From: a virus
Lineage: Duplodnaviria; Heunggongvirae; Uroviricota; Caudoviricetes
Reading direction: 5' to 3' (one strand)
Virus record (IMG/VR): IMGVR_UViG_3300011584_000016
Span: 1-32,869 of that record
DNA length: 32,869 nucleotides
Shown here in pieces: positions 6,637 to 32,869 of the stretch (within the stretch, counting starts at the first letter, position 1; each line of letters starts with the position of its first letter). The notes under the pieces were generated by a model, which did not search any database, was not told where the DNA came from, and worked only from the letters and a program-made list of their open reading frames with translations. The translations under genes were made by a program, and so were the position numbers.

Positions 6637-6673
6637 CCGCCTATTACAACGAAATCGATCCATTCGCTGCTCT

Positions 6674-10680: not shown

Positions 10681-10706
10681 GGGCAGTTCAAATCTGCCCT
10701 TTTTTT
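10681..10706 (+). terminator. Rho-independent terminator after the cargo gene
   Basis: Hairpin GGGCAG-ttcaaat-CTGCCC followed by 7 T; sits between convergent genes. Confidence 0.6.
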
Positions 10707-11019
10707 AGCTTGGTAACAACAGGTATAATGTTTTTTGTTTTTGTTCTGGCGACATCATATCGATCAGCGTTTTGATAGCGCGGTCAGATGAAAGCGCGCT
10801 GGGGCTTAATGTGTGAGAAAATGTTATATTAACGACGAAAGTATGACCGCACTCAACGTTATTACAGGCGCAATAAACATCTGATAGATGGGGATGTTTC
10901 CGCACGGTCTTTTTGATCGTTGAATTGCCGTTGCATTCCGGACAGATAATTTTCGGGCTGCGCAATTTGTTTCCCCTTAATCTATTTTTGAGCGGGGTAT
11001 ATTTTAACCGTTTAGCCAT
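10705..11019 (-). CDS. Ogr/Delta-family zinc-finger protein (late transcription activator-like)
   Basis: CPEC-x20-CAC-NNVEC-GHTF resembles the Ogr zinc finger (CQNVNCSATF in P2 Ogr as I recall); start overlaps the portal stop by 1 nt. Confidence 0.55.
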   Translation of the reverse strand: MAKRLKYTPLKNRLRGNKLRSPKIICPECNGNSTIKKTVRKHPHLSDVYCACNNVECGHTFVVNITFSHTLSPSALSSDRAIKTLIDMMSPEQKQKTLYLLLPS

Positions 11020-14824: not shown

Positions 14825-14861
14825 AGCCGGGTAATAATTACTATTCATCAGGAATAAATAA

Positions 14862-15854: not shown

Positions 15855-15863
15855 GGGTTTGTT

Positions 15864-16676: not shown

Positions 16677-17128
16677 TGTTTTCCGGCAAAACGGCGAACT
16701 ACCAGGACCGCGTGATCAAAAACGTAGAGTTCTGGCCGGATATTAACGCCGGGGAATTTGAGGAACGCCGCCAGATCCCCGCCAGTATCGCTAATGCGAC
16801 GGTTGTCGCGGCGCTACTGGCGGCAATTGACAGCGTAAACCGTGATCTGGACACCTGGGCCGATATTCAATGCGGCAAGGGGTATTCCTCTGCGGCAGAT
16901 GTTCCGGGGCCGTCGTGTGAAGGGGCTAACGCGCTGACTGAGTCTTACAAAAAGGCTGTTTTTGCCAGGGCGAAAGCCGATTTAATGCCGGAATTTGCCA
17001 CCGTGGGACGTCGTGAAACGCACCCCGGCGCGGAATCGCAGGAAACGGCGGACGGCTTACGCGGTGAAGCTGCGCAGGTTATCCGCCAGATTATGGGCTA
17101 TGCCCGCGCCACGGTGAGGCTGTTATGA
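16676..17128 (+). CDS. L: Head completion/stabilisation protein (P2 gpL-like)
   Basis: 150-aa ORF following M with ATGA-type overlaps on both sides. Confidence 0.7.
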   Translation: MFSGKTANYQDRVIKNVEFWPDINAGEFEERRQIPASIANATVVAALLAAIDSVNRDLDTWADIQCGKGYSSAADVPGPSCEGANALTESYKKAVFARAKADLMPEFATVGRRETHPGAESQETADGLRGEAAQVIRQIMGYARATVRLL

Positions 17129-17604
17129 CGCCGACACGCACGCAGCTTAATGCGTTGACTGAATATCTGATCGGCAAGTTGCCGCCGAAGGTGTCCGCCT
17201 GCCTTGATTCATGGATGGAAAACGCGTCGCTGATTTATGCCCCGCGCGATATGGGGCTGTATAGCGAAATGGCGCAATTGCAGTTTGACGCGGTGCTGTC
17301 ATTTGAAAATTACCCGTTTCGTGTTTACCCGCCTGCGCTGCTGTTCTGCCTGATTACTGGCTGGCTGGCAGATTGTGACACGCGACGGGATGAACTGGAG
17401 TTGCCCGATCCGTCATTGGTGATCGCTGAGTCGGCGGAGGAAATCGCCGACGTGGAAATCACGATTAAATTCAGTTGCCCGCTGTGTGTTCGCGAAGACG
17501 CGCAGGGGGCTATTGAGTGGGACGGCAGGCGCTGGTCATTGTCTGAGCCGGAGATCTGGACGGCAGAACATTACGATCTGTCTGTTGGGGTGGCCGGTGA
17601 TTAG
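17125..17604 (+). CDS. Putative tail completion protein (P2 gpR-like)
   Basis: 159-aa ORF coupled between L and the S-like gene; call by position. Confidence 0.45.
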   Translation: MTPTRTQLNALTEYLIGKLPPKVSACLDSWMENASLIYAPRDMGLYSEMAQLQFDAVLSFENYPFRVYPPALLFCLITGWLADCDTRRDELELPDPSLVIAESAEEIADVEITIKFSCPLCVREDAQGAIEWDGRRWSLSEPEIWTAEHYDLSVGVAGD

Positions 17605-18229
17605 AACCGACCTGCGCGGCCAGCGTGAGGCGCTAATCAGGCTTTCGGCGCTGGAACTGCCACCGGCAAAGCGGCGGCAGGTTTTGCAGAATGCCGCCAG
17701 GCGGATTAAGCGGGAAGCGCAGCAGAACGCCAGGGCGCAGCGGACACCGGACGGGCGCGGATGGGAAAAGCGCCAGCGCGGCAGTAAAAAAATGATGCGT
17801 CGCATTCCTGCGCTAATGAGCATTACGCCGACTTCTGATGATGTGAAGTTGCACTGGAAAAACCCCGTTCATAGCGATATGGCAGCGCGCCATCACTACG
17901 GTAAGCCGGAACATGTGACGGCTGCGCAGCTCAAGCGCCAGCGCGGTCAGCCTGCATATGATGCGCCGGTCACGAGGGGGCAGGCGGTCAAGTTGCGGCA
18001 GCTGGGTTACACGGTTAAGCAAGGCAAAAAGAAGAAAACGCCGTCAGTTAAATGGATTACGCAAAACGTTAAGCAAGGGCAGGCCGGATTAATAATCCGC
18101 GTTTTGAAACAAGAGGCAGCAAAAACGGAATGGGAAGTACCGGCCCACCCCCGCCCCTGGCTGGATACCCGCTCAAAACATAACGCGCGAATATTAGCGC
18201 AGGAATTAAAAAAGGTGAGGAAAAAATGA
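17597..18229 (+). CDS. Putative virion morphogenesis / tail completion protein (P2 gpS / Mu G-like)
   Basis: Likely GTG start at 17597 (GGGGTGG upstream) overlapping the previous stop; basic C-terminal half. Confidence 0.5.
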   Translation: MIRTDLRGQREALIRLSALELPPAKRRQVLQNAARRIKREAQQNARAQRTPDGRGWEKRQRGSKKMMRRIPALMSITPTSDDVKLHWKNPVHSDMAARHHYGKPEHVTAAQLKRQRGQPAYDAPVTRGQAVKLRQLGYTVKQGKKKKTPSVKWITQNVKQGQAGLIIRVLKQEAAKTEWEVPAHPRPWLDTRSKHNARILAQELKKVRKK

Positions 18230-19371
18230 CATTTCCACAAGTCCAGGTTAATCAAATTGATTTAGCGCAAAGCGCAACAAATGAAATTGAACGGCGTTTA
18301 TTATTTATCGGGTTCACTCCCCTTGAATTTACGCCGGGTTTTTATTCTATCAATTCGCAAACAGATTTAGATAAAATAGCTGATACCAGTAGTGATTACG
18401 GACGATCGCTTTTGGCTGCTAAATTAAACGCAGGTCAGAATTGGAGTGCGGCAGTTTATTTTATGGATTCCAATGAAAAATGGCAGGATGCGGTTCGAAA
18501 ATGTCAGGCATACGGTAGTTTTGAGGGGATTGTATTATTAGAGGATTTCGCTGGGTGGAATGAAGAGGAGTCCGGATTTTCGCTAACCAAAGGGGCAGGA
18601 GAAGCCGCCGCGATACGACAAGAATTGATCGCGACGTACGGGCGCTGGACGTGGTTTATTTTACCAGTTAAAGGTCCGCAGGATGCCGATATGACGTGGC
18701 AACAATATTCCGCTGCTTTAACGCAATGGCAAACGGGGTTAGTTGCTGATGGCGTTATGCTGGTTCCGCGTCTTTATGAGAATTTGCCAGGTGTAATTGC
18801 TGGACGTTTATGTAATCGACTGGTGACAATCGCAGATACTCCCGCGCGCGTTTTAACTGGATCGCTCGTGTATGTTGGCAACGCAACTAAAGATAAAAAC
18901 GGCGAGACGGTAACCGCGGATATTGTGCAGGCGCTGGACGCTGCTCGTTATTCCGTTCCGGTCACGTATGCAGATTTTGAGGGTATTTACTGGAACGATG
19001 GTCCGTTATTAGCGGCAAAGGGTAGCGACTATCAATCGATCCGTATTTTGCGAATTGTTGATAAAGTGGCGCGCCAGGTGCGTTTACTTGCTATTCGTAA
19101 TATTGGTAACCGTTCGTTAAATTCCACGCCCGCGAGCATGGAATATAACAAAATGGTTTTTGCGAAACCACTTCGCACAATGGCAAAAAGCAGCACTATT
19201 AATGGCGTTTCGTTCCCTGGGGAAGTTTATTCACCAAAAGAAGGCGACGTCGTCATTACGTGGATTGATTCCACGCACGTAAATATTTGCGTACAGGTGC
19301 GTCCGACAGAATGCCCGCTGGTTATTGTGGTTAATGTCATGGTCGATCTGTCTGTACAGAATGAGGTGTAA
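18226..19371 (+). CDS. Putative tail sheath-like protein
   Basis: 381-aa ORF immediately followed by a 153-aa tube-sized ORF. Confidence 0.5.
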   Translation: MTFPQVQVNQIDLAQSATNEIERRLLFIGFTPLEFTPGFYSINSQTDLDKIADTSSDYGRSLLAAKLNAGQNWSAAVYFMDSNEKWQDAVRKCQAYGSFEGIVLLEDFAGWNEEESGFSLTKGAGEAAAIRQELIATYGRWTWFILPVKGPQDADMTWQQYSAALTQWQTGLVADGVMLVPRLYENLPGVIAGRLCNRLVTIADTPARVLTGSLVYVGNATKDKNGETVTADIVQALDAARYSVPVTYADFEGIYWNDGPLLAAKGSDYQSIRILRIVDKVARQVRLLAIRNIGNRSLNSTPASMEYNKMVFAKPLRTMAKSSTINGVSFPGEVYSPKEGDVVITWIDSTHVNICVQVRPTECPLVIVVNVMVDLSVQNEV

Positions 19372-19373
19372 TT

Positions 19374-19835
19374 ATGAGCGGTTCAAAACGTATTTCTGGG
19401 ATGGCGTTTGATATTACGCTATTCAGCACAACAATTCATGTGAATAAAGTCACGCTGACTATTACGGATAACTCCGAAGTGGCGAAAACGCGCGGCATTC
19501 CCGACGGATACACGGACGGCGACGTAAGCGCCGAAGGTGATCTTGAACTGGATACTAAGAATTTTACGCGCTTTCATGATGCGGCAGCGGCGGCGGGAAG
19601 TTATCGCGGCATTGAACCGGAGGATATTTTATTTTACGCAAAGGCGGGCGACGAAAAAATTAAAGTGGAGGCGTTCGGCTGTAAATTTTTGCTGGACAGT
19701 CTTCTGGATATTGATACCGCTGGCAGTGATAAGTCTGTATATAAAGTAAAATATAAAGTTACTGCCCCGGAATTTATTAAGATAAACGGAATTCCTTATT
19801 TGTCCGCCGATGATGTCCGCGATCTGATCGGGTAA
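19374..19835 (+). CDS. Putative tail tube protein
   Basis: 153-aa ORF right after the sheath-like gene. Confidence 0.45.
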   Translation: MSGSKRISGMAFDITLFSTTIHVNKVTLTITDNSEVAKTRGIPDGYTDGDVSAEGDLELDTKNFTRFHDAAAAAGSYRGIEPEDILFYAKAGDEKIKVEAFGCKFLLDSLLDIDTAGSDKSVYKVKYKVTAPEFIKINGIPYLSADDVRDLIG

Positions 19836-19838
19836 TTT

Positions 19839-20141
19839 ATGCTAACGCCTCATGAAAAGGTCATGGTTACCCTGGCGGGCATCGGCGGATTAATCGGTCT
19901 GGCTAAAGTGCTGGAATCAACAGAACCGCTGACAACCAGGCTAATTATTGGCCGTGTGATACTGGGGTCCGCAGTCTCAATGTGCGCCGGGGCCGCATTA
20001 ATTCAGTTCCCCGACATGCCGCCAATTGCTATTAACGGCGTTGGCGCGGCACTGGGGATTGTGGGGTATCAGGCAGTTGAATTATGGCTGCGTAAACGTG
20101 CGCGTTTAAATTCAAAGAGTAAACAAAATGACACTGAGTGA
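19839..20141 (+). CDS. Putative holin (three predicted TM segments)
   Basis: 100 aa with three hydrophobic stretches and a charged C-terminus RKRARLNSKSKQ; overlaps the endolysin gene start. Confidence 0.5.
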   Translation: MLTPHEKVMVTLAGIGGLIGLAKVLESTEPLTTRLIIGRVILGSAVSMCAGAALIQFPDMPPIAINGVGAALGIVGYQAVELWLRKRARLNSKSKQNDTE

Positions 20142-20466
20142 AAAACAGTCGTTATTTACAGTAATGATCGGTCAGTTAATTTTCTATGCTGATCAACACG
20201 GTTTGCGCCTGACGTTTGGTGAAGCGTATCGCACACCGGAACAAGCAGCGCTAAACGCAAAAACGGGGCGTGGAATTAAAAATAGTTTGCATACTCAACG
20301 GCTGGCTATTGATTTTAATTTATTCGTAAACGGCGAATATAAAACAGACACCCGCGATTATCTCGCGCTTGGGGAATACTGGGAATCGATCGGCGGAACG
20401 TGGGGCGGGCGATTCAGCAAACAAGACGGCAATCATTTTAGTCTTGAGCATAACGGCATCAAATAA
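20128..20466 (+). CDS. Endolysin, M15-type zinc peptidase (L-alanyl-D-glutamate peptidase-like)
   Basis: H-x6-D (HTQRLAID) and C-terminal His (FSLEHNG) match the M15 zinc-ligand arrangement; 112 aa. Confidence 0.7.
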   Translation: MTLSEKQSLFTVMIGQLIFYADQHGLRLTFGEAYRTPEQAALNAKTGRGIKNSLHTQRLAIDFNLFVNGEYKTDTRDYLALGEYWESIGGTWGGRFSKQDGNHFSLEHNGIK

Positions 20467-20495
20467 CATTAAACACTAATTAACAGGAAATAAAA

Positions 20496-20756
20496 ATGGA
20501 CGAAATTATCACTCTGACTATCGGCGGCGTGGATGTGGTCTTTGAACCAAATGAGGTTGCCTACAATTCATATATTAATGAAATGGCGATGGATAACAAA
20601 GTCGCCCCATCAATTGAATACGTTCGCGCTATTGTCGCGCGTGAAAGTAAAGATGCGCTGGCAACTATCCTGAAAAAACCAGGTGCGGCAATTCAGATCG
20701 CAGCGGCGGTAAATAAACAGTACGCGCCAGAACTGGATATTGTAGTAAAAAAATAA
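20496..20756 (+). CDS. Tail assembly chaperone (P2 gpE-like), short form
   Basis: 86-aa ORF upstream of the tape measure; AGGA RBS; ends in A-run slippery site. Confidence 0.6.
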   Translation: MDEIITLTIGGVDVVFEPNEVAYNSYINEMAMDNKVAPSIEYVRAIVARESKDALATILKKPGAAIQIAAAVNKQYAPELDIVVKK

Positions 20757-20935
20757 ATACCCGCGTTCAGGCTATAGATAATAACGGCTTAGAGCAAATG
20801 CTAACGTTACGCCGTTATTATCTGCCTGATGCTGACGACTCTGAACAATCGTTAGCGCGCGCGGTCTGGCTGGATAACCGTTATTGGGAAAATTTCAGCG
20901 TAAGCGTGGCGAATGGAATCGCAAAAATCTTTTAG
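20496..20935 (+). CDS. Tail assembly chaperone -1 frameshift fusion product (E+E'-like), slip at A_AAA_AAA 20747-20753
   Basis: The -1 frame from 20753 is open for 60 codons (INTRVQAIDN...GIAKIF) to TAG 20933-20935, ending 7 nt before the tape-measure ATG. Confidence 0.55.
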
Positions 20936-20942
20936 GTGAATT

Positions 20943-23354
20943 ATGTCCAGTGAATCGTTAACGTATGTTATATCGCTGATTGACCGCGCCAGCGCCCCGC
21001 TGCGCGGTATTCGTCAGCAAGTTGGCGCGCTGGGGCAAACAGCTAAAAACGGTGCGCAGCAGGTCGCAATGGGAACCGCCGCGATGTGGGCGGCGGGGCA
21101 GGCTATTAAAAGTGGGCTTGAACCTGCTATTGAAATGCGTCGCGCGCTGGCGTCGGTTGAGGCGCTGGAAGTAACCAAAGACGGATTAAAAAAATTACAA
21201 AATGCGGCGCTTGATTTCAGTATGCAATATGGAACCAGCGCAACAGAAATTGTCGGCGCGTCTTATGATATCCAGTCTGCTATTTCTGGACTATCCGCAG
21301 ATGAATTAACAGGATTTACTACAACGTCAGCATTAGTTGCAAAAGCAACGAAAGCCAACACGGCGACCATGACTAATTATATGGGGACCATGTACGGCAT
21401 TTTTAAACAGACTGCTGATGGAATGGGTAAAATTAAGTGGGCGGAAAAAATAGGCGGGCAAACGGCCTACGCTGCCAATTTATTTAAATCTGATGGTGAA
21501 TCAATGTCGCAGGCGTTTACCGCGCTGGGGGCGTCTGCGCAAACTGCGGGGCGCACCAGTGCGGAGCAGTTTGCAATATTGGGTCAATTGCAATCCACAA
21601 TGTCAGGTAGTGAAGCGGGAACGAAATACAAAGCATTTTTAGCCGGTGTCGGGAAAGCGCAAAAAACGCTGGGCATGAAATTTACTGATGCAACCGGACA
21701 AATGAAGTCAATGCCGGATATTCTGGACATGCTGCATAAACGGTTCGGAAATATCAGCAAAGTAGCGGATTCTGATTTACTAAAAAAAGCGTTTGGTACT
21801 GATGAAGCTGTATCGCTAATTAAACTGTTGATCAGCGACACTGACGGATTAAAACGCAGTATCAACGAAATTGACGCGATCAACGGGCTGGACGACGTTA
21901 AACGCGCCGCCGCAACAGTTGCTGATCCGTGGGAGCGAGCCGCCGCAGGTATTACAGCAGTTAAAATTTCGCTGGGTAGTGCACTATTACCGGTGTTAGA
22001 GCCAGTGTTATTGAAAATGGTGAAAATGTCTGACGAGCTGGTCACCTGGCTGAATAAATTCCGCAATATCGCACGTTGGATCGGTATTGTGACTGCGTCA
22101 GTTGTTGGCGCAACGGCTGCGGGTGCAGCGTTTTCCATTATGCTGGGTGGCCTTAAACTGGCGGGGGCGGGAATTAGATTGGCAGGGATATTCACGGGTA
22201 TTACTCCAATGTTTAAATTACTCTGGCGGGGCGTTACTGCTATTTTTAATTTTTCCGGCGCGCTGAAATATTTACGCGTGGCGTTATTTGGCGCACGTCT
22301 GTCGTTAATGTCGTTTGGTGGGACGTTAGCAGTTGTAACCGCGCCAGTATGGGGGATCGTCGCGTTAATCGCTCTGGCGATCGGTGCTGTGGTTGTTTTA
22401 GTGGTTCGTTTCTGGAATCCGATCAAGGCGTTTTTCAGCGGTTTTGCCACTGGTTTCATGCAGGCCGCGCAAAAATCTTCCGTTCTGCAATCTGTTATAG
22501 CGGCGTTGGGGCCGGTGTTTTCTGCTGTTTGCTCTGTAGTTAGTTGGTTGTGGACTGGAATTAAGGATCTGTGTGGCTGGTTCGGGCAGTTGCTGACACC
22601 GATTCAATATACAGAAAGTGAATTAGCGTCGTTTTCTGATGCTGGCAGCACTGCGGGAAATATTGTTGCTGCTGCGTTCGATATTATTTTATACCCCATC
22701 AACTTGATTATTACGGCGGTGAGCGGATTAATTAAAATATGGCCTGATGTGGTCGCGGGCTGGAATATTGTTACCGCAGCGTTCTCGGCTTTTTCATTCG
22801 CTGATACGTTTAAATCAGGTGTTGAATCAATCGGTAATTTATTTTCGAATTTGTGGGAATCAATCAAACAACAATTTTACGGCGTTTTTAACAGCATTGT
22901 TGAACAGCTCAATAAATTACCGGGCGTCGAAATTGAGTTGATGGGGTCGGTGAATACTGCGGCAGGCGTTGCGGGAATCGCATCGCAACAGCCGGGAGGG
23001 ATTGCCCCCGGTGATATTCCCGGAGTATTAGCAATACCGGGTGTTGCGCCTATCCCCGGTGTCGCGCCCGTAGCCGCCCCGGTTCCGGCTGCTGCGGCGG
23101 CTGTTCATGCTGGCGTGTTAACTGTACCGGGTATTGCGCCACTTTCCGCACCTGTTGCTACTCCTGCGCCGGTCGCCGCAGCTCCGCTAACTGGCGGGAA
23201 ATTAAATCCGGGCGTTGTTGGGTCCGGGAATAAAACAACGAAAATAACCAGCAATATCAATAATAGCCGGACTGTGGGAGCCGTTAACGTCTACGTACAG
23301 CAAGCGCAGGACGCGCAGCAAATATCAGAACTTGCAGAAATGGCGGCAGCATGA
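20943..23354 (+). CDS. Tail tape measure protein
   Basis: 803 aa; central hydrophobic segments; C-terminal Pro/Ala/Val-rich low-complexity region; follows the chaperone frameshift pair. Confidence 0.85.
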   Translation: MSSESLTYVISLIDRASAPLRGIRQQVGALGQTAKNGAQQVAMGTAAMWAAGQAIKSGLEPAIEMRRALASVEALEVTKDGLKKLQNAALDFSMQYGTSATEIVGASYDIQSAISGLSADELTGFTTTSALVAKATKANTATMTNYMGTMYGIFKQTADGMGKIKWAEKIGGQTAYAANLFKSDGESMSQAFTALGASAQTAGRTSAEQFAILGQLQSTMSGSEAGTKYKAFLAGVGKAQKTLGMKFTDATGQMKSMPDILDMLHKRFGNISKVADSDLLKKAFGTDEAVSLIKLLISDTDGLKRSINEIDAINGLDDVKRAAATVADPWERAAAGITAVKISLGSALLPVLEPVLLKMVKMSDELVTWLNKFRNIARWIGIVTASVVGATAAGAAFSIMLGGLKLAGAGIRLAGIFTGITPMFKLLWRGVTAIFNFSGALKYLRVALFGARLSLMSFGGTLAVVTAPVWGIVALIALAIGAVVVLVVRFWNPIKAFFSGFATGFMQAAQKSSVLQSVIAALGPVFSAVCSVVSWLWTGIKDLCGWFGQLLTPIQYTESELASFSDAGSTAGNIVAAAFDIILYPINLIITAVSGLIKIWPDVVAGWNIVTAAFSAFSFADTFKSGVESIGNLFSNLWESIKQQFYGVFNSIVEQLNKLPGVEIELMGSVNTAAGVAGIASQQPGGIAPGDIPGVLAIPGVAPIPGVAPVAAPVPAAAAAVHAGVLTVPGIAPLSAPVATPAPVAAAPLTGGKLNPGVVGSGNKTTKITSNINNSRTVGAVNVYVQQAQDAQQISELAEMAAA

Positions 23355-23686
23355 CGGACAAAATATATATTGATTTGCGAATTATCGACGGTGATTTTTT
23401 ATTAAATACAGGACGTGAGCCGACGTTATGCGATAACCGCGTCAGTATTGGACAGGATATCAAACACGCAATTATTGAGAGTAATTACGCAACGCAGTTA
23501 ATCGGCCAGCGATCCGCTGTGTTGCGCAATGACGTCTATCTGAAAATTATTTTAATGATTGAAACGGATATTCGCCTGATCCCTGGAACCGTACGTGTAT
23601 ACGAAGAGGGCGCAGGGCGTTTTATTGTCACTGCTGAAACGTATGAATTTGGGCTAATTGATCCGATCGAGGTGGTTTATGAGTGA
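23351..23686 (+). CDS. Putative baseplate protein (gpW/gp25-like size and position)
   Basis: 111-aa ORF overlapping the tape-measure stop and preceding the J-like gene. Confidence 0.45.
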   Translation: MTDKIYIDLRIIDGDFLLNTGREPTLCDNRVSIGQDIKHAIIESNYATQLIGQRSAVLRNDVYLKIILMIETDIRLIPGTVRVYEEGAGRFIVTAETYEFGLIDPIEVVYE

Positions 23687-24863
23687 CGCGCCGAAACCAG
23701 ATTACCGCGCGCTATTGAATGACGCAGGTTTGCCGGGGACTGAAAAAGAGATTCAGGCGAAATTCCAGACCATTGCTGACGACGAAGGCCTGATCACAAA
23801 CACATCAACAATGTCACCATTCTGGCGACTGATCAAAGCGATCGTCACGCGCCCGGTGTTGTGGCTGCGCGATGTGCTGGCCGACGTTGTGCTAACTAAC
23901 TTGTTTGTTGCAACAGCGGGCGGAACCTGGCTGGATTTGCTGGCGTGGGCTGTTCGTCTGGAGCGCAAAGAAGCGACGCCAGCGCACGGCGCGGTAACGT
24001 TTATTAAAAACAGCGCGGCGGATACCGTCACGATCCCTGCCGGAACGATTGTTCAGACTGAACGTGTTAACGGCGAGGTTTATCGCCTGATTGTTGACAA
24101 AACAACGATTATTCCGGCTGGTATTGAGCGGTTATCGCTCGCGTGTACCGCTGAAACAGCGGGCAGCGCGTGGAATCTCGCCCCGGGTTATTACCACGTT
24201 TTACCGGTCGCCGTCGCGGGCGTTATTGAGGTCACAACAAATGACGACTGGCTGACAATGCCGGGCGCGGATCGTGAATCTGATGATGAATTCCGCCCAC
24301 GGATACGCAATCAATTTAACGTTGTGGGCAATTACCACATTGACGCCGTTTACCGGTCCGCCGTCGCCAGCGTGGCGGGGCTGAGTACCGACCGCATATT
24401 TTTCTTACATGACGCCCCGCGCGGCCCAGGTACGGCCAACGCTTATTTATTACTTGATGCGGGCGTCGTTAGCGATCCGTTTATCACCGCAGTGAATAAC
24501 TACGTAATGGGGCAGGGAAACCACGGACACGGCGACGATATGCAGTGTTTCCCGATGCCGGAGACATTTCACGATCTGATTGTCACGTTACACGCACCGG
24601 ATAACGCGATGCTGACTGACGCGGAACGCGCTGATCTGCCCGCAGCCGTTGAAAACATAATTCGCTGTGCGTTCCGTGAAAACTCCGCATATCAGGTAAC
24701 GAAAACGTGGCCCTGGTCGCGGTTTGGGTTTTCAAAACTGGGGGAGGAAATTCACGAACTATTTCCAGCGCTGTCGTCTGTTGAATTTTCGCTGGGCGAT
24801 ATCGTCAGTGAATTGAGTATTCCGCGTTTACGTTCGCTATCAGTGAAGTGGGGCGGCGCATGA
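23679..24863 (+). CDS. Baseplate J-like protein
   Basis: About 395 aa from ATG 23679 (GAGGTG RBS), in the expected position before the I-like and fibre genes. Confidence 0.7.
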   Translation: MSDAPKPDYRALLNDAGLPGTEKEIQAKFQTIADDEGLITNTSTMSPFWRLIKAIVTRPVLWLRDVLADVVLTNLFVATAGGTWLDLLAWAVRLERKEATPAHGAVTFIKNSAADTVTIPAGTIVQTERVNGEVYRLIVDKTTIIPAGIERLSLACTAETAGSAWNLAPGYYHVLPVAVAGVIEVTTNDDWLTMPGADRESDDEFRPRIRNQFNVVGNYHIDAVYRSAVASVAGLSTDRIFFLHDAPRGPGTANAYLLLDAGVVSDPFITAVNNYVMGQGNHGHGDDMQCFPMPETFHDLIVTLHAPDNAMLTDAERADLPAAVENIIRCAFRENSAYQVTKTWPWSRFGFSKLGEEIHELFPALSSVEFSLGDIVSELSIPRLRSLSVKWGGA

Positions 24864-25390
24864 ACATTAAATTGCCATGCTGGATGAATCGCGGTGAACC
24901 GCAAAAATTGGCCGCGGTGTGTAAAAAATTTTGGTTGTGGCTTGATAGCTGGCTGCGCTGGCCGCTGCAACAATTCGACGCGCTGAACTGTAACGAAACG
25001 ATCCTGTATTTGCTGGCGTGGCAGCGTGATGTAACGCGCCTGACTGGCGAACCGCTGGAACTGTTCCGCCGTCGCGTAAATTTTGCGTTTATCAACGCGC
25101 AGGACGCAGGCAGCACTGCCGGTTTTCTGCGGATATTTGAGCGGCTGGGGATCGGGTTTGTTGGTATTAACGAGCGTGTAGAGGGTATCGACTGGGACGT
25201 AATTTTATTAGATCTGACAGATAAACAGATATCTGAAAACGGCGATCTGTTGCGTGAAATAGTCAGGCAATACGGATGTACGTGTCGCCGTTACAGATTT
25301 CAGTCTGTTACGTCAACGCCGATCAATTTACGGGCAGGCAGTGTTCAAAATGATTACGTGTGTAACACCGCGTCATTAATCAGGGAATAA
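24860..25390 (+). CDS. Tail protein I-like (baseplate)
   Basis: About 176 aa from ATG 24860 (ATGA overlap with J stop), directly before the fibre gene. Confidence 0.55.
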   Translation: MNIKLPCWMNRGEPQKLAAVCKKFWLWLDSWLRWPLQQFDALNCNETILYLLAWQRDVTRLTGEPLELFRRRVNFAFINAQDAGSTAGFLRIFERLGIGFVGINERVEGIDWDVILLDLTDKQISENGDLLREIVRQYGCTCRRYRFQSVTSTPINLRAGSVQNDYVCNTASLIRE

Positions 25391-25392
25391 AA

Positions 25393-27693
25393 ATGGCAAC
25401 AATAATTACTCGCGCGTTTGAGCGATGGCAAGCCGCTGATCTGGTCACGCCGGGCGAAATTCAACTGGATGAATTCATTCTGGCTAATGTGCCGGGGCTG
25501 GATGCTGACGCAGCGATTGACCGCGACGCCGGGTTGCCCGACACCGCGCATATCGTTTATCGCGAACCGGTTAACGCCGCCGGTGTTGTCAATAAAAACA
25601 CCGTTGCGTATTCGTTTACCATCGGGACAAACATTGGTGATTTTGCGTTTAACTGGATCGGCCTGATTTGCAAAAAAACCGGGCTGTTAGCGATGGTGAC
25701 GACGATCCCGACGCTGCAAAAAGTTAAGACAACAGCGACGGAACAAGGCAATGCATTTACTCGCTCGTTTTTGATTGAATTTACTGGCGCGTCTGAAAAA
25801 ACAGGGATTACTACGCCCGCGGAAACCTGGCAGATCGATTTTACCGCACGGCTGATAGGGATTGACGAGTACCAGCGGTTACTAAATATCGATCACTACG
25901 GCAGCGCCCTGTTTTTTGACGACGGTTGGCTGATTCAGCGCGACGGCGCGAAATACCGTTGCGTCGCAGGTCTGGGATACGTTGCAGGGCTGAGGCTGGC
26001 ACACGAAGCAACGGAGGAAATTACCGTTGCGAGTAAACCGGCGGCGGTCTGGCTGGATACGGTCTGGCAGGGTTCTGTGATGGCACCGTGCATTCCGGTT
26101 ACTGAAATTTGCGTAACAACTGCTGGCGATCTCGCGGAATACACCGACGAGGCGGGCAAAAAACATTACGTTTTCAAAATTGCAGAAATCGCGGCAGACG
26201 GTACGGTAACGGACCTGCGCCCTGTTCGTAGCAGTGACGATCTGGATAAACGTTATTTGCGGCGGTCGCAAAATCTCGCAGACCTGGACGACAAAGGCAA
26301 GTCTCGCGTAAATCTGGGCCTGGGCGGCGCGGCGGTGCGCAACGTAGGGCAACTGGCGGGGCAGGTTGCCGCAGCTGACGATCCGCGAATTGTTCACGCC
26401 GTGCAGGATACGCGACAAATCAACAGTAAGTCGCTGACGGGCGATATTTCGCTGACGTATTCAGACGTTGGCGCAGTACCGACGTCGCGCAAAGTGAATA
26501 ATAAGGTACTGACGGGCGATATTACGCTGACGTATTCAGACGTTGGCGCAGTACCGACGTCGCGCAAGGTGAATAACAAGGCGCTAACGGGCGATATTAC
26601 GCTGACGTATACAGACGTCGGCGCAGTGCCAGCGGGGCGAAAAGTCAACGGACGCGCGCTGTCAGCAGATATCAACGTAACGGCGCAGGATATTTTTAAT
26701 GGCCAGGCGGTCGGATTAGGTGCAAATCAAAATCTGAACAGCTATACAACGCCTGGTATTTATTATCAACCGGCTAATGCCAACACATCTGCGGCGCTGA
26801 ATTACCCCGAAAATAACGCCGGGGCATTGATTGTTTATCGTGATGCGGGAATTCAGCAAGAATACCGCGTTTACAACTCATCACGACGCTGGACACGCGC
26901 GCAGTACGCCGACGGGGCGTGGACGCCCTGGGCGCGGGAATATAACACCCAAAATAAACCTACGTATTCAGATGTTGGCGCAGTACCGACGTCGCGCAAA
27001 GTGAATAATAAGGCGCTGACGGGTGATATTACGCTGACATATTCAGACGTTGGCGCAGCTGCTGCAAGCCATAAACACCCCTGGTCAGATATTACCGGGG
27101 TGCCGGATTTTATTACGGTAGCAAATGCCGACGCGCGTTATTTCGGTAATTTCGCGATGTTTACTGCAAACGGTACGTTTACTGTTCCGGCTGGGGTTAA
27201 AAAAGTAATGGTGGAAATGATCGGAGGTGGCGCAGGCGGCTGCGCCGCTCCGTCGTCCACGAATTACTATAAACCAGCGCCCGGCGGGCGCGCTGCGCAA
27301 GTTGCCAGCGCGATAGTTACCGTTTCTCCGGGCACCGCTATTTCTGTTTCTGTGGGGGCAGGTGGTGCCGGTGCGATCCCTGCGGCGGGCACGGCGCTGA
27401 TTGCGGGTGGTGAGGGTGGCTCTTCTAGTTTTGGAGGTGTTTCAGCCGCAGGCGGTAAAGGATTACTGAATAGCGGCGTTTGGGATCCAGCCGAATTTAA
27501 CGGCCTTAAGTCAACAGTGTGGGTTGGCGGCGACGGTGAAAACAGTCCGTTTGGATCTGGCGGAAAAGGGGTTACGTCAAGTTTCAGCCATGCAACAGGA
27601 TATGGCGCGGGTGGTTCCGGCGGCAGCTGTAACGGAGTGAGTAAAAGCAATGGGGGCAACGGTTCCCCTGGTTTTGTCAGAATTTGGTGGTAA
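25393..27693 (+). CDS. Tail fibre protein with internal tandem repeats and glycine-rich C-terminal domain
   Basis: 766 aa; repeats LTGDITLTYSDVGAVPTSRKVNNK; C-terminal GGGAGG...GGSGGS... glycine-rich region ending FVRIWW. Confidence 0.8.
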   Translation: MATIITRAFERWQAADLVTPGEIQLDEFILANVPGLDADAAIDRDAGLPDTAHIVYREPVNAAGVVNKNTVAYSFTIGTNIGDFAFNWIGLICKKTGLLAMVTTIPTLQKVKTTATEQGNAFTRSFLIEFTGASEKTGITTPAETWQIDFTARLIGIDEYQRLLNIDHYGSALFFDDGWLIQRDGAKYRCVAGLGYVAGLRLAHEATEEITVASKPAAVWLDTVWQGSVMAPCIPVTEICVTTAGDLAEYTDEAGKKHYVFKIAEIAADGTVTDLRPVRSSDDLDKRYLRRSQNLADLDDKGKSRVNLGLGGAAVRNVGQLAGQVAAADDPRIVHAVQDTRQINSKSLTGDISLTYSDVGAVPTSRKVNNKVLTGDITLTYSDVGAVPTSRKVNNKALTGDITLTYTDVGAVPAGRKVNGRALSADINVTAQDIFNGQAVGLGANQNLNSYTTPGIYYQPANANTSAALNYPENNAGALIVYRDAGIQQEYRVYNSSRRWTRAQYADGAWTPWAREYNTQNKPTYSDVGAVPTSRKVNNKALTGDITLTYSDVGAAAASHKHPWSDITGVPDFITVANADARYFGNFAMFTANGTFTVPAGVKKVMVEMIGGGAGGCAAPSSTNYYKPAPGGRAAQVASAIVTVSPGTAISVSVGAGGAGAIPAAGTALIAGGEGGSSSFGGVSAAGGKGLLNSGVWDPAEFNGLKSTVWVGGDGENSPFGSGGKGVTSSFSHATGYGAGGSGGSCNGVSKSNGGNGSPGFVRIWW
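26440..26673 (+). repeat. Three tandem copies of a 78-nt coding repeat in the tail fibre gene; a fourth diverged copy at about 26957-27060
   Basis: Near-identical nucleotide units ctgacgggcgatatt.cgctgacgtattcagacgttggcgcagtaccgacgtcgcgcaa.gtgaata.taag repeated head-to-tail. Confidence 0.8.
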
Positions 27694-29627: not shown

Positions 29628-30268
29628 GCACGAGACACCCGGTAATTTTAACGCTCAACGGCGAAACCGTAAAAATGCTGAATCTGAAAGTGGAAGCCGT
29701 TTTGCCGTTCAAAGACAAAGACCAGTCAGGCCAGACGTCAGGAACGCAGAAAAGCGAGGGCGGGATAAAAGCTAAGGAATTGAACGTCACCGGAACGGTG
29801 CCTTTTCGTAATGTCGAATTTTTAACGCGAATTTTTGAACTCGCGGAGGGCGTGGACGGAGGCGGCGCGCAGACGGTTTATCGCGTTTCCAATTTCACAG
29901 CAGCAGCGATCAATATGCGACAGGCAACGTTTACTGGTCGTGTTAGCGCCCCTGAATCTGATTCGCTGCGAGCGTGGAACGTGTCGTTCACACTGCGCGA
30001 ATATAGCAGCGTACCTGAGAAAAAAGAGTCAAATATTTTTTCTAAATTGCCGGGCGTCACGAAACAGACAACGCCAGGTGTTACAACGCCGGGCGCATCA
30101 GGTGGCGACGGCACGACGCCAGATACTGAGATGTCTTCGTCTGATAAATTCTGGAAAAAAATTGATGACTGGCTGGCCCCGGCAGAAGACAAAAGCGGCG
30201 CGGGCGCGTCTGGTGGTTCGTCGGGATCTACGTCAGGGACAGCAGTGAAAACGGACGATAAAAAATGA
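29624..30268 (+). CDS. Hypothetical tail-region protein with Gly/Ser/Thr-rich C-terminus
   Basis: 214-aa ORF coupled to neighbours. Confidence 0.4.
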   Translation: MSTRHPVILTLNGETVKMLNLKVEAVLPFKDKDQSGQTSGTQKSEGGIKAKELNVTGTVPFRNVEFLTRIFELAEGVDGGGAQTVYRVSNFTAAAINMRQATFTGRVSAPESDSLRAWNVSFTLREYSSVPEKKESNIFSKLPGVTKQTTPGVTTPGASGGDGTTPDTEMSSSDKFWKKIDDWLAPAEDKSGAGASGGSSGSTSGTAVKTDDKK

Positions 30269-31911
30269 AAATAGCAAGCCGGTTTTATATCGGGTCCGAA
30301 ACAGTGACGCCGGTCGATGTTCGGCTGGCGCTGGAGTTGTCCGCCGCTGGTCTGGGTTTTGTGACGGTGCCCAGTAAAGAAAATTTACAGGGAAAAATGG
30401 TTGCGCTGGATCTGGGCTATTCGGGAAAAATGCTGCGCTGGTTTACCGGGATTGTTGAACGCAGTCAGCAGGCGGAACGCGGCTGGCAACGTATCCTAAT
30501 CCGTGAGTTAACCGGGATTTTAGCCCGCCCCATGCCGTGCTCAATTCAACACCCAACACTGCGCGACGTGTGCAACTGGGTTACGGAACAATGCGGCCTG
30601 GCGTTTGCACTGCCGGAGGACCAGAAGTACACGGATACGCCGATCCCAAATTTCACGCACTCCGGCAGCGGCTATCAGTTATTGAATAATCTGGGGCGCG
30701 CGTTCTCAATCCCGGACTATATCTGGCAGCAATTACCCGAGGGCGCTGTATTCGTCGGCAGCTGGCAGCAATCCCGCTGGCCGTCACTACCCGTTGAGAT
30801 ACCGCAGGGATTCTCTGATCAACAGCATAGCGGCAACACTATGCGGATCGTGTGTGTGCCAGCGATGCGCCCAGGTGCAGTGATTAACGGCAAGCGTATC
30901 AAGCGTGTGGATCTGACAGACGACCAGATGTCGATTACGTGGGCCGTTACTGACAGCAAGGGAAGGGAGGCGCAAAAGTCTCAATTCCGCCGCCAGGCTG
31001 AAAAAGAATTTCCCGAGTTGGCCGCGGGCCTGCATTTGCCGAAAATTGGGCGCGTGGAGTCTATCAGCGACACTACCGGCAATAGCGACCTGTCTGATCC
31101 GTTTCGCCCCCGTTTCGCTGTAAACGTGCAACTACTGGACGAAAACGGCAAACCGGATAAATCAGTACCGTTATACAACGCGGTTCCACTGCCAACGGGG
31201 TTCGGCGGCAGCGATAGCGGGTTGATGCAATATCCCGCGCCCGGAACACTGGTTGAACTGGCGTTCAGTGAAGCGCGCCCGGATCGTCCACACATCCGCC
31301 AGATAATGGCACAAGGGCTGACGCTACCGGCTGTTGCAGCAGACGAACAGGTACAACAGGCGCGCTGTGGCGTACTGCAAAAAACAAACAGCCGCGGCGA
31401 CGTGAGCCGCGAAACAGATCAGGCGCAGACGGAATCCGCGAGGGTCCGCAAGATTAAGGCGGACGAGGAAAAGTCAGACATTACGGAACGGCGCGCGAGT
31501 ATAGCGGGTGACGACGTGATGCAGATCGGCGGGTCGCACCGACTGTATACGCTGGGGTCTATACAGCACATGACCGCCGGGGATATCGACACCGGCGCAG
31601 GCGGTGATCATCGTCACGCAGTTGGACAGGAGATGGTCGAGGTAATAGGAAAAATGCGCCGCAGTGTTGCAAAAGAGTTACAGCACTTTGAGGCAGGCAA
31701 GAGCTGGACCGGCACTGATGCGATAAATATTTTTGTGCTGCTTGATGAACTGATGCAGTGTGTACAGCGGCTGGCAACGGCTGACGCCGCGCATATTCAC
31801 ATGTGCAACTGCGGCCCCAGCAAGCCGCCGGTTACTGCCCCTGCGTTCACTGCCGAGGCTGCGGCAGCTGGCGCACTACACGCGCAACTATCCCCAATCA
31901 TTGAGAAGTAG
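30265..31911 (+). CDS. Putative baseplate hub/spike protein (gpD-like N-terminal part with gpV-like OB-fold segment)
   Basis: 548 aa; middle segment IGRVESI...RFAVNVQLLDENG...PGTLVELAFSEARPDRPHI resembles spike OB-fold signatures; last large gene before the terminator. Confidence 0.5.
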   Translation: MKIASRFYIGSETVTPVDVRLALELSAAGLGFVTVPSKENLQGKMVALDLGYSGKMLRWFTGIVERSQQAERGWQRILIRELTGILARPMPCSIQHPTLRDVCNWVTEQCGLAFALPEDQKYTDTPIPNFTHSGSGYQLLNNLGRAFSIPDYIWQQLPEGAVFVGSWQQSRWPSLPVEIPQGFSDQQHSGNTMRIVCVPAMRPGAVINGKRIKRVDLTDDQMSITWAVTDSKGREAQKSQFRRQAEKEFPELAAGLHLPKIGRVESISDTTGNSDLSDPFRPRFAVNVQLLDENGKPDKSVPLYNAVPLPTGFGGSDSGLMQYPAPGTLVELAFSEARPDRPHIRQIMAQGLTLPAVAADEQVQQARCGVLQKTNSRGDVSRETDQAQTESARVRKIKADEEKSDITERRASIAGDDVMQIGGSHRLYTLGSIQHMTAGDIDTGAGGDHRHAVGQEMVEVIGKMRRSVAKELQHFEAGKSWTGTDAINIFVLLDELMQCVQRLATADAAHIHMCNCGPSKPPVTAPAFTAEAAAAGALHAQLSPIIEK

Positions 31912-31929
31912 CCCAGCACCAACACTGTA

Positions 31930-31955
31930 GCCCGCCCTGCGCGGGCTTTTTTTTT
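31930..31955 (+). terminator. Rho-independent terminator ending the late operon
   Basis: Hairpin GCCCGC-cctgc-GCGGGC followed by 9 T. Confidence 0.65.
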
Positions 31956-32223
31956 GCGCCCGCCACCGCCCGATCCCCGTCATTTGGTCGTGCGCGGTGG
32001 TCACTCCCGCCCCTGTTCGCCTATCCCCGAAAAAATCTGCCACCCCAGCGCCAGCGGGACCAAAACCGCGCTCACCCGCACGCCCGCGGCTTGTGTGTAG
32101 TGAAATTTTTTTCAGTTCTGGATTTTGCAATAAAGGGCCGCAAAAGCCCGCGCAGCAAGGATCTAAAAAGGATCTGCGGAACTGAAAAAATTACGTGCTT
32201 TTTCAGTTAATTGAAAACAGAAA

Positions 32224-32250
32224 GATCACGAATGTGATCGGCCTGTTTTT
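32224..32250 (+). promoter_or_regulatory. Palindrome GATCAC-GAAT-GTGATC followed by T-run; candidate regulatory site or weak terminator
   Basis: Perfect 6-bp arms containing two GATC sites, T5 run 6 nt downstream. Confidence 0.3.
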
Positions 32251-32417
32251 ATTGCATTGAAAATAAAAGAAAAAATTATTTTACGTGAAGGCTTGAGGGT
32301 GAGGGAATGCTTCAGTAATTTTAAAAATTACAATAAAAACATATAGTTAGTTAATTATAAAACTGAAATTTACGCTTTGGTCTTGAGAAAGGCCGTCGAG
32401 TATGGCGGCCTTAGGCA

Positions 32418-32633
32418 TTACTTGTGTGGCGGGTAGTCAATACCGCCATTCGGTGGACGGCAACGATAAATCCGCTTTAAACCTAGTTTCCACCCCTTTA
32501 CGAATCCAAAACGCTTTAATGCAATCAGTGTGTATTTTGAACAAGATGGGGTGTGACGACATCTGTTACGAATATTCATTGGCGCATGTGCTCGGTAGAA
32601 CAACACAAGGCGAATACTCAAGACTTTTAACAT
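32418..32633 (-). CDS. YidD-family protein (membrane protein insertion efficiency factor-like)
   Basis: CRHTPSCSKYTLIALKRFGFVKGWKLGLKRIYRCRPP matches the YidD signature (E. coli YidD has CRFTPTCSSYGIEALRRFG...KRVLKCHP). Confidence 0.7.
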   Translation of the reverse strand: MLKVLSIRLVLFYRAHAPMNIRNRCRHTPSCSKYTLIALKRFGFVKGWKLGLKRIYRCRPPNGGIDYPPHK

Positions 32634-32869
32634 TAATCCACTTCTTTTCTAAAAGTGATAACGTAGTACTGAGTAAAGTTTGTCTTGCTGCCACCGAAAC
32701 ACCCTGGCTTTTCTTCAATCCCAATAGTGTCTATCCGCTGAAACTCCCAGCCGTTGGCGGCTTGTTCGTTTACCACGTCTTGAAGGTAAGCTGCTGCTAT
32801 TCCTGCTTTGTTGTCACGTGCTTTAACTGAGATATTGGGCGGTACTTGTATCATCTTATAGGTGTACAT
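32633..32869 (-). CDS. Small DUF4177-like protein (start at window edge, possibly truncated)
   Basis: 78-aa ORF whose start codon is the last three bases of the window; stop overlaps the yidD-like start. Confidence 0.4.
   Translation of the reverse strand: MYTYKMIQVPPNISVKARDNKAGIAAAYLQDVVNEQAANGWEFQRIDTIGIEEKPGCFGGSKTNFTQYYVITFRKEVD

Follow-up and report, generated by a model that had tools for sequence, protein, structure and literature searches.

Repeat-rich DNA at the right end of a P2-family prophage: a predicted cos packaging site followed by the probable terminator of a small cargo operon

A predicted cos site downstream of the late operon

We found that a repeat-rich noncoding stretch of a caudovirus genome (Caudoviricetes; IMG/VR record IMGVR_UViG_3300011584_000016) is mostly a predicted cos packaging site, after which comes the probable terminator of a small cargo operon. 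The sequence analysed, hereafter the window, was the whole stretch of 32,869 nt. The segment at approximately 32045-32210 is very probably the cos site of a P2-family (Peduoviridae) prophage with an HP1/phiO18P-type tail module and layout. It is an ordinary feature, previously unannotated, and represents one more case of a known site type. The broad idea behind an earlier sequence-only reading, that of a cis-acting stretch with many sites for protein binding, holds, whereas its specific proposals of an attachment site and of a structured RNA do not. Features are listed in Table 1.

Table 1. Features of the predicted cos region, its surroundings and the terminase genes (window coordinates).
Feature	Position	Strand	Basis or remark
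Terminase large subunit (gpP type), enzyme expected to cut cos	12054-13826	-	tblastn
Terminase small subunit (gpM type), putative reader of flank motifs	15864-16676	+	Pfam PF05944, E=1e-38
Rho-independent terminator of late tail operon	31929-31955	+	7-bp GC stem then T9; terminator scan; fold -13.3 kcal/mol
Left flank of cos, AGCGCCAGCGGGACCAAAAC	32047-32065	+	counterpart of the ACGGAA(A) elements that precede cos in HP1, phiO18P and SI7 (8-element alignment)
Predicted cosN core, CCGCG-CTCACCCGCACGCC-CGCGG	32066-32089	.	alignment to annotated cohesive end of phiO18P
T-run and TTTCAGTT motif 1 (left arm of 12-bp inverted repeat)	32097-32118	+	cos-flank element at ~+39
GC-rich hairpin, terminator-like	32135-32156	-	terminator scan; putative function
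Direct repeats of AAGGATCT (two copies, spaced 11 bp)	32157-32175	+	direct-repeat search; two GATC sites
Protospacer	32160-32191	+	100% match to E. coli type I-E CRISPR spacers; AAG PAM at 32157-32159
TTTCAGTT motif 2 (right inverted-repeat arm, GAACTGAAAAAA)	32179-32190	-	~+110 from cos
TTTCAGTT motif 3, TTTTTCAGTTAATTG	32199-32214	+	~+131
Perfect palindrome GATCAC-GAAT-GTGATC	32224-32239	.	inside imperfect dyads of 30 nt (73% complementary) and 64 bp
17-bp AT palindrome GTAATTTTAAAAATTAC	32315-32331	.	one arm altered without compensation in N1420, LZSFT34, L028 and L029
Hairpin, probable terminator of the convergent cargo operon	32389-32412	-	fold; 6 nt after stop codon of yidD-like gene
YidD-family gene	32418-32633	-	Pfam PF01809, E=2e-18
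DUF4177-like gene	32633-32869	-	Pfam; forms cargo (moron) operon with yidD-like gene

The genome layout is that of the HP1 group. The last tail gene (30265-31911) is a homolog of HP1 orf35, HP2 orf35 and phiO18P gp46 (41-46% amino-acid identity), and the gene preceding it matches Pfam HP1_ORF34. In HP1, HP2 and phiO18P, a distance of 190-215 bp separates the end of the orf35-type gene from the right end of the genome, and the order is cos, attP and int. Here, the stop codon of the homolog is at 31911 and the predicted core lies at 32066-32089, in a noncoding gap on the attP/int side. The large terminase product showed 61% identity to terminases of the ESSI-2 group in tblastn searches, in which 481 Peduoviridae-type records covered at least 80% of the query.

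Profile searches identified the same place. The main profile was built with nhmmer solely from the end-defined junctions of phiO18P, HP1, SW5 and ESSI2_ev129, and it gave one match in the 32.9 kb, at 32041-32208 on the plus strand (E=1.1e-13; runner-up E=1.1). A 7-phage profile matched 32045-32213 (E=1.1e-15); the anchors of YenM324 and L003 had been picked by similarity, a problem avoided by the 4-record profile. The linear SW5 record ends with ...GGCGCTACACCGC and starts with GCACCCGCCTGCGC..., and the adapter-trimmed ends of ESSI2_ev129 are ...GCGCTAC and CGCCTGCGG...; both pairs fall inside the aligned core, and both are assembly-derived rather than end-mapped. Nextera libraries are known to lose true termini (PMC5557969). 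In pairwise comparisons, the region scored highest against ESSI2 (z=8.4), which also had the closest terminase, and scores against phiO18P, A051 and SI7 were modest (z 4-5.5).

The P2 junction itself did not score significantly against the region (z=1.1). Also, the P2/186/P4 cohesive-end sequence GGCGAGGCGGGGAAAGCAC had no match in the window at up to 3 mismatches, blastn-short with P2/P4 junctions found nothing specific, and the genes beside ogr/portal, the position of cos in P2, are separated by 30 bp only. Megablast and blastn searches of the phage collection revealed no isolated phage sharing the region at the DNA level, the only match being the yidD/DUF4177 cassette of P88.

Core and conserved flanks

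From the alignment, dyad half-sites CCGCG and CGCGG are predicted to bracket 32071-32084/86, which would be the 5' cohesive end, ~14-16 nt long. The gpP/gpM-type terminase would introduce staggered nicks at this dyad for packaging of replicated DNA and leave a cohesive end beginning with CTCACCCGCACGCC..., with nick positions carried over from relatives whose flanks are <60% identical. In PV94, a member of the same phage group, 16-nt 5' overhangs were determined experimentally (PMC3986222).

The core is followed by a series of short motifs. The sequence-only reading had pointed out recurring TTCAG/CTGAA cores, and TTTCAGTT occurs four times in 32090-32420, compared with 0.04 expected from local dinucleotide shuffles (5 copies versus 1.29 expected across the whole window). 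The 12-bp inverted repeat of that reading was likewise recovered, with TTTTTTCAGTTC at 32107-32118 and GAACTGAAAAAA at 32179-32190 being 100% complementary over 12 nt and 60 nt apart. As judged from the alignments, both arms are conserved cos-flank motifs, and the inverted repeat would reduce to motifs 1 and 2 of the TTTCAGTT set. Motif 1 has counterparts in HP1 (TGTGTTTTTTCAGTTAG), P2 (TGTATTTTTTCAGCG, 44-58 nt from cosL), ESSI2, L003 and P4-like satellites. For motif 2, CTGAAA recurs between +104 and +113 in six of the eight elements aligned, including satellites. At the offset of motif 3, TTT(C/G)CA is present in phiO18P, SI7, YenM324, ESSI2 and HP1, and the cos profile match ends within this motif, at 32208-32213.

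By analogy with lambda cosB, the terminase-binding flank would consist of TTTCAGTT at ~+39, ~+110 (inverted) and ~+131, plus the upstream element ACCAAAAC. We infer which protein binds which motif, including the assignment of gpM to TTTCAGTT; the TTTCAGTT triplet may be a recognition element, as yet uncharacterised, of gpM-type small terminases.

Comparison with known cos systems

The closest annotated counterpart is the cos of phiO18P (Aeromonas, Bielevirus; 16-nt cosL/cosR ends annotated in NC_009542), which is located in the same place, ~200 bp after the orf35-type gene and before attP/int. Its core, CCGCG-CTCATCCGCTCCCGCC-TGCGG, aligns with that of the window, and the two share CCGCG-CTCAYCCGC...CCGC and the dyad flanks, as well as a T-run at ~+40, CTGAAA at ~+113 and AGGATC repeats at ~+90 to +120. 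However, the cores are not identical, with a number of differing positions and a length difference of 2 nt, TTTTTTGCAAAAG in phiO18P corresponds to TTTTTTTCAGTT in the window, a cargo operon between cos and attP is lacking in phiO18P, and the ends of the window phage are predicted ones.

HP1 and HP2 (Haemophilus, Hpunavirus) share the order orf35, cos, attP and int and the AT-rich flank. HP1 also has TTTTTTCAGTT ~40 nt from its left end and an inverted AACTG(A/T)A element ~100 nt in. In contrast, its cohesive end is unrelated (annotated cosL, TCCTTCCCC) and its repeated upstream element is CACGGAAA, compared with ACCAAAAC in the window.

With P2 and P4, the similarity is one of organization. 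The cos of P2 and P4 is a packaging signal common to helper and satellite (Ziermann & Calendar 1990, as cited in PMC9122126); in the present group, too, helper and satellites share little more than this noncoding block, with variable cargo hotspots adjoining. The terminases are of the same gpP/gpM type, and P2 has TATTTTTTCAG 44-55 nt from cosL. However, the 19-nt P2 end is missing from the window, P2 cos adjoins the portal gene rather than following the tail operon, and the satellites found here carry a P2-family capsid gene.

Lambda cos (cosN and cosB) offers a possible functional parallel, a dyad nicking site beside repeated short motifs in mixed orientation. In lambda, repeated R sites in cosB bind the small terminase subunit. 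The two systems have no sequence or protein-family relationship, and the region here lacks an IHF consensus site.

Satellites sharing the block

Three variants of P4-like satellites (L013/L014, L030 and L042) are 82-88% identical to the window over 32049-32122. For the coding homologs of these satellites (ogr/delta, int and capsid), identity is 70-74%, below that of the noncoding block. Within this block, conservation between helper prophage and satellites was 87-97% in the left flank, 90-100% in the core and 77-100% in the segment containing motif 1, and the cos profile matched satellites at E=1e-15 to 5e-21. The satellites carry the block internally, beside ogr/delta. With the core and the first two motifs, they would be packageable by this helper type. 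Among the 120 loci that a metagenome scan with the 18-nt GC-rich core returned, L042 was the one genuine relative; the others were chance matches in GC-rich genomes.

P2 and P4 have been reported to share cos only, with variable hotspots directly adjoining (PMC9122126). The core here is flanked by cargo and by a mosaic breakpoint at ~32032-32045. Among the E. coli prophages, 32032-32869 is highly conserved, and this may be due to a recent exchange of modules and not to selection.

Terminators and the cargo operon

Terminator-like hairpins lie on both sides of the predicted cos site. In place of the late terminator, a hairpin and T-run of another kind are present in the other prophage lineage. 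The GC-rich hairpin at 32135-32156 contains a perfect 14-nt inverted copy (32142-32155) of an arm of the late terminator with its T-run (31937-31950); across relatives, no consistent structure was observed for the GC hairpin at +60 to +90.

The hairpin AAGGCCG...CGGCCTT, noticed in the sequence-only reading just downstream of the yidD-like gene, was verified; it occupies 32389-32412, with 6 nt between it and the stop codon. It has a 7-bp stem (-11.6 kcal/mol) and the tail UUUCUC, and it is absent from the list of the consensus terminator scan. The stem is kept across relatives and extended in N1420, and loop bases vary. This hairpin is the probable terminator of the yidD-like/DUF4177 operon.

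The cargo operon (32418-32869) has a GC content of 0.37-0.43, compared with 0.52-0.63 for the phage. The same cassette occurs in phage P88, Dryocola, Enterobacter and Pantoea. A genome scan with the YidD-like protein found three close loci only, and at two of them (Enterobacter and Pantoea) the cassette lies beside ordinary host genes without cos.

Other explanations for the repeats

The cos assignment gives no confident explanation for the AAGGATCT repeats, the GATCAC palindrome and the segment 32215-32388, the last of which would be a poorly conserved AT-rich spacer. The repeat (AGGATCT in the sequence-only reading) was found twice, at 32157-32164 and 32168-32175, and the palindrome GATCAC-GAAT-GTGATC and the four GATC sites (32160, 32171, 32224 and 32236) were also verified. 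Upstream of the core, the only GATC is at 31972, and both pairs (32160/32171 and 32224/32236) are on the other side. In phiO18P and A051, related AGGATC repeats occur at ~+90 to +120, and in ESSI2 at ~+145 to +156; AGGATCT repeats are not present in satellites. All three phages have GATC pairs with a spacing of 10-11 bp close to cos, and such pairs are partly conserved in relatives and missing from satellites. The palindrome is identical in all five close prophage relatives and missing from satellites and more distant phages; it is a putative weak bidirectional terminator or dimer-binding site.

One explanation for the GATC pairs, compatible with cos, is a Dam/SeqA-sensitive element that controls terminase action, as at P1 pac, or a local promoter. 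We consider it unlikely. Spacing within the two pairs is 11 bp in one and 12 bp in the other, close to one turn of the helix, and the phage encodes a D12-class Dam-type adenine methylase (5035-6051; Pfam). Also, phiO18P, A051 and ESSI2 have AGGATC pairs or triplets, with 10-18 bp spacing, on the corresponding side of cos. The cluster at 32160-32236 is the densest 80-bp GATC stretch of the window, and its 4 sites exceed the ~0.5 expected from local composition (P ~0.002). However, random placement of the window's 170 sites produced a cluster of such density in 66% of trials, and the cluster is notable against the local AT-rich composition only and not unusual window-wide. Besides, satellites have the cos core without the repeats, and YenM324 and HP1 have no GGATC at corresponding positions. 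At P1 pac, GATC repeats lie on both sides of the cleavage site; here they are on one side of the cut only. By analogy with P1 pac, the GATC pairs and the phage Dam methylase could conceivably form a switch that times or licenses terminase cutting in HP1-type phages, an idea to which we give little weight. If true, satellites with the cos core but without the GATC pairs would escape methylation control.

It is very unlikely that the inverted repeats form a small structured RNA, or a promoter/operator for the adjacent cargo genes. They fold well as RNA (z -3.8 to -4.8), the region has one promoter-like site (32320-32347, plus strand) and several terminator-like hairpins, and P88 has a hok/gef type I toxin locus in the equivalent slot. 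On the other hand, an Rfam scan of 31600-32869 at permissive E-values produced sub-threshold matches only, all of them on terminator hairpins, and no family reached its gathering score; the best were STnc430 (24 bits, threshold 47) and asX2 (27.3 bits, threshold 70). Promoter-like sites were no more numerous than expected from shuffles, no Ogr-type late-promoter box (TGT-N12-ACA) was detected in the region, and six-frame searches turned up no small ORF that was hok-like or otherwise conserved. In N1420, the right arm of the inverted repeat is changed and the left arm has no compensating change; in satellites, the loop is replaced and the arms are kept. This is the pattern to be expected of DNA sites, not of an RNA stem, and the structured RNA of the sequence-only reading finds no support. 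Furthermore, the flanking genes converge on the region, which leaves no downstream gene to regulate.

That the palindromes arose by chance in horizontally acquired AT-rich DNA, with no function beyond two transcription terminators, is highly improbable for the region as a whole. The GC content falls to 0.37-0.40, which favours A/T palindromes, 32300-32388 is little conserved with satellites, and the GATC cluster has no window-wide significance. For example, the 17-bp palindrome GTAATTTTAAAAATTAC does exist at 32315-32331 but is not retained in relatives with 91-98% identity, and it is probably a chance feature of AT-rich DNA. Chance, however, leaves unexplained the single profile match (E=1e-13), the satellite identity of 84-88%, above that of coding regions, the fixed TTTCAG/CTGAAA offsets in six genera and the 100-fold local enrichment of TTTCAGTT. 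It is contradicted for 32045-32215 and still plausible for 32300-32388.

The leading idea of the sequence-only reading, an attR with integrase arm and accessory-protein binding sites, is almost certainly wrong. The region is AT-rich, repeat-dense and at the window end opposite the integrase; the HP1 attP region begins ~250 bp from cos, so att-type sites are nearby in ancestral layouts, and the 13-mer TTTCAGTTAATTG, located at 32202-32214, is also found where the HP1 attP feature has its left edge. However, the related prophages of E. coli N1420 (beside yecA) and LZSFT34 (beside yeaE) are at different chromosomal loci, and in both the yidD-like and DUF4177 genes lie between the region and host DNA, which also removes the right prophage boundary from where it had been drawn. 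N1420 has its junction at a tRNA 3' fragment (GGTTCAAGTCCCGCTCCGGGTACCA), which lies ~190-250 bp past the last gene, ~650-700 bp right of the repeat region and ~200 bp outside the window. E. coli CRISPR spacers match 32160-32191 exactly, indicating that this DNA is part of the mobile element, satellites carry the same block beside ogr/delta, and the IHF site WATCAANNNNTTR was absent from 32000-32420 at <=1 mismatch. The true att site is beyond the window end, with the cargo operon between cos and att.

Implications

A probable, previously unannotated cos is now placed for a group of enterobacterial HP1/ESSI-2-like prophages, which is useful for annotation and for matching satellites with helpers and unsurprising to specialists, and the inferred prophage boundary is corrected, as the element continues past the yidD-like/DUF4177 cargo genes. 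The comparison provides short conserved candidates for terminase binding, which are the dyad core, the TTTCAGTT motifs at +39, +110 and +131, and the GATC pairs. The layout fits the published picture in which cargo hotspots and recombination breakpoints cluster beside cos. Finally, the shared core in E. coli satellites with a capsid gene and ogr/delta suggests their packaging helper type.

A probable cos site downstream of the tail operon

The window was a P2-family prophage with both edges at gene boundaries. Its last two tail genes were homologs of HP1 ORF34 (by Pfam) and of HP1 orf35/phiO18P gp46 (41-46% amino-acid identity). In tail module and gene layout, the prophage therefore follows the HP1/phiO18P type and not the P2 type. 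In the Haemophilus phages HP1 and HP2 and the Aeromonas phage phiO18P, the orf35 homolog is the final gene before the right genome end, and its stop codon lies 190-215 bp before the cohesive ends, after which come attP and int. At the equivalent offset, the window carried CCGCG-CTCACCCGCACGCC-CGCGG (32066-32089). The corresponding phiO18P core is CCGCG-CTCATCCGCTCCCGCC-TGCGG, the central 16 nt of which are annotated as cosL/cosR, and 16-nt 5' overhangs were mapped experimentally in PV94, a phage of the same group (PMC3986222). On the 3' side of the core, the window sequence GTGAAATTTTTTTCAGTT was matched by GTAAATTTTTTGCA in phiO18P, TGTGTTTTTTCAGTTAG in HP1, GGAAATTTTTTCAGTTTT in Escherichia phage ESSI2_ev129 and TGTATTTTTTCAGCG in P2, the last located 44-58 nt from cosL. 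The repeat-rich region first noticed (32100-32412) is very probably a real cis-acting element, for the most part an HP1/phiO18P-type cos site that was not previously annotated in this prophage group and is common to E. coli satellites.

Features of the prophage and of the region beyond its tail operon
Feature	Position	Strand	Remark
Integrase	1-993	-	
D12-class Dam-type adenine methyltransferase	5035-6051		cysteine-rich C-terminal extension
gpA-type replication protein	6617-9181		
Ogr/Delta zinc-finger protein	10705-11019	-	
Portal	11019-12053	-	
Large terminase	12054-13826	-	
gpM-type small terminase	15864-16676		
Tail operon	end at 31911		
Strong terminator 3' of tail operon	31929-31955		
12-nt perfect inverted repeat, TTTTTTCAGTTC / GAACTGAAAAAA	32107-32118 / 32179-32190		
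Two AAGGATCT repeats	32157-32164, 32168-32175		
Palindrome GATCAC-GAAT-GTGATC	32224-32239		within longer imperfect dyad
17-bp AT palindrome	32315-32331		
Hairpin AAGGCCG/CGGCCTT	32389-32412		6 nt past stop of minus-strand YidD-family ORF (Pfam PF01809)

When eight elements drawn from six genera were aligned, they showed a common architecture: ACGGAA/ACCAAAAC upstream of the core, then the core itself, a T-run together with CAG at approximately +39 (counted from cos), CTGAAA at approximately +110 (in 6 of 8), TTT(C/G)CA at approximately +131 and TTTxCGTG at approximately +215. In Salmonella phage SW5, both termini of the linear record fell within the aligned core, as did the adapter-trimmed ends of ESSI2_ev129, whose terminase was the closest to that of the window (61%). 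The public record of the latter (NC_049394) has Nextera adapter (CTGTCTCTTATACACATCT... and complement) at both ends. A profile HMM built from only the four junctions whose positions are fixed by record ends (phiO18P, HP1, SW5 and ESSI2_ev129) gave a single match in the 32.9-kb window, at 32041-32208 (+) with E=1.1e-13 (next best E=1.1); a seven-phage profile matched 32045-32213 with E=1.1e-15. No P2-type cohesive end was found across the whole window, and the slot beside the portal gene where P2 has cos was only a 30-bp gap.

The Ogr/Delta-type late activator gene lay directly 3' of the portal gene on the same strand, whereas in P2 and P88 it follows the tail operon; its DNA identity to the satellite delta-like gene was 74%. 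Between the replication gene and ogr/portal, a 440-aa ORF (9352-10674) had a predicted membrane-spanning C-terminal half and no match in a Pfam search. It occupies the slot of P2's cos-adjacent defence hotspot and may therefore have a cargo or defence function.

Sequence elements around the core

All elements described in the sequence-only reading were present where it placed them. TTTCAGTT, on either strand, occurred 4 times in 32090-32420 against 0.04 expected from local dinucleotide shuffles (5 against 1.29 in the whole window), and the arms of the 12-bp inverted repeat are motifs 1 and 2 of this conserved set. The right arm was changed in the prophage of E. coli N1420 without a compensating change on the left, and satellites kept the arms alone; both observations fit protein-binding DNA sites better than an RNA stem. 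AGGATC pairs 10-18 bp apart were found on the same side of cos in phiO18P, A051 and ESSI2, counterparts of the AAGGATCT repeats; such repeats were absent from YenM324, HP1 and all satellites compared and are therefore probably dispensable for packaging. The GATCAC palindrome was invariant in five close prophages and absent elsewhere among the compared elements; a weak bidirectional terminator is one possible role for it, a dimer-binding site another. The stem of the 32389-32412 hairpin was conserved and its U-tract was weak; given this stem and its position right after the yidD-like stop, it is probably the terminator of the yidD-like operon. A perfect 14-nt inverted repeat, CTGCGCGGGCTTTT / AAAAGCCCGCGCAG (31937-31950 and 32142-32155), flanked the core, such that the arm and T-run of the late terminator were duplicated, reversed, across cos. 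This pair was present in both prophage lineages and may represent convergent terminators that keep transcription out of cos.

Four GATC sites within 80 bp, as first noticed, did form the densest such cluster in the window, which averages 5.2 GATC per kb. Random placement of the 170 sites yielded an equally dense cluster in 66% of trials, and the cluster is notable only relative to local AT-rich composition; a Dam/SeqA-sensitive layer superimposed on cos is a possibility, if a slight one. Pure chance accounts for the rightmost AT-rich part alone, where the 17-bp palindrome, disrupted in all close relatives, is probably fortuitous. The suggestion of a small structured RNA or regulatory element was not borne out: Rfam gave no match above threshold, the N1420 arm change was uncompensated, promoter-like sites were no commoner than chance and no conserved small ORF was found.

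The proposal that the region is the right prophage boundary, or an att site, was contradicted by related prophages, which hold yidD-like and DUF4177-like genes between it and host DNA and extend past it at two different chromosomal loci (N1420 adjoins yecA, LZSFT34 adjoins yeaE). In N1420 a tRNA 3' fragment (GGTTCAAGTCCCGCTCCGGGTACCA) lay 190-250 bp beyond the last gene, and the equivalent position is outside the window. In addition, a spacer of E. coli type I-E CRISPR arrays was identical to 32160-32191 (AAG PAM at 32157-32159), indicating that the DNA there is part of a mobile element. Other such spacers were identical to 8629-8656 and 31804-31835. Strain AMSHJX01 had two adjacent spacers, one directed at the gpA-like gene and the other at the cos flank (AAG PAM), and a leader-proximal spacer of strain R1 targeted the last tail gene near its end (ATG PAM).

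Mosaic structure and satellites

P2 and P4 are reported to share essentially the cos signal alone, and variable cargo hotspots directly adjoin cos (PMC9122126). Likewise, in the window prophage a mosaic breakpoint (~32032-32045) lay immediately left of the cos core and cargo genes to its right; identity to LZSFT34-type prophages increased from ~86% overall and in structural genes to 98% between 32032 and the right edge of the window. The AT-rich cargo, a yidD-like/DUF4177 cassette (32418-32869), was also present in phage P88 (L011), in which ogr and a hok/gef locus occupy the equivalent or neighbouring slot. This two-gene cassette recurred in P2-family prophages of several genera (L011, L003, L004 and L005), and in Enterobacter and Pantoea loci it adjoined ordinary host genes.

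A 73-bp block (32049-32122) showed 88% identity to noncoding DNA of an E. coli satellite with an integrase, P2-family capsid gene, derepression protein, DUF927 primase and ogr/delta gene, whereas coding homologs of the same satellite were only 70-74% identical to the window. Two more variants (one from IMG/VR, one from a metagenome) had the block at 82-84% identity. Helper-satellite conservation was 87-100% at 32047-32086 and 77-100% at 32097-32116, and rose again across ACTGAAAAAA (32181-32190); the sequence between the inverted-repeat arms was replaced in satellites. The satellite of E. coli PapRG-04-4 (L018, ~14300-26200; variants in L014, L030 and L042) was P4-like, with an integrase, scaffold-like gene, 'P2 family major capsid', Icd-like and derepression proteins, DUF927 primase, second integrase-like gene, ogr/delta, the cos block and, beside cos, a toxin-antitoxin pair (YefM/YoeB). 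Its cos was common to the HP1-type prophage group of the window and not to P2.

With regard to packaging, a gpP/gpM-type terminase would bind the flank motifs and nick the dyad, and nicking would leave a 5' overhang of ~14-16 nt that begins near 32071. The same terminase would package satellites that share the core and the first motifs.
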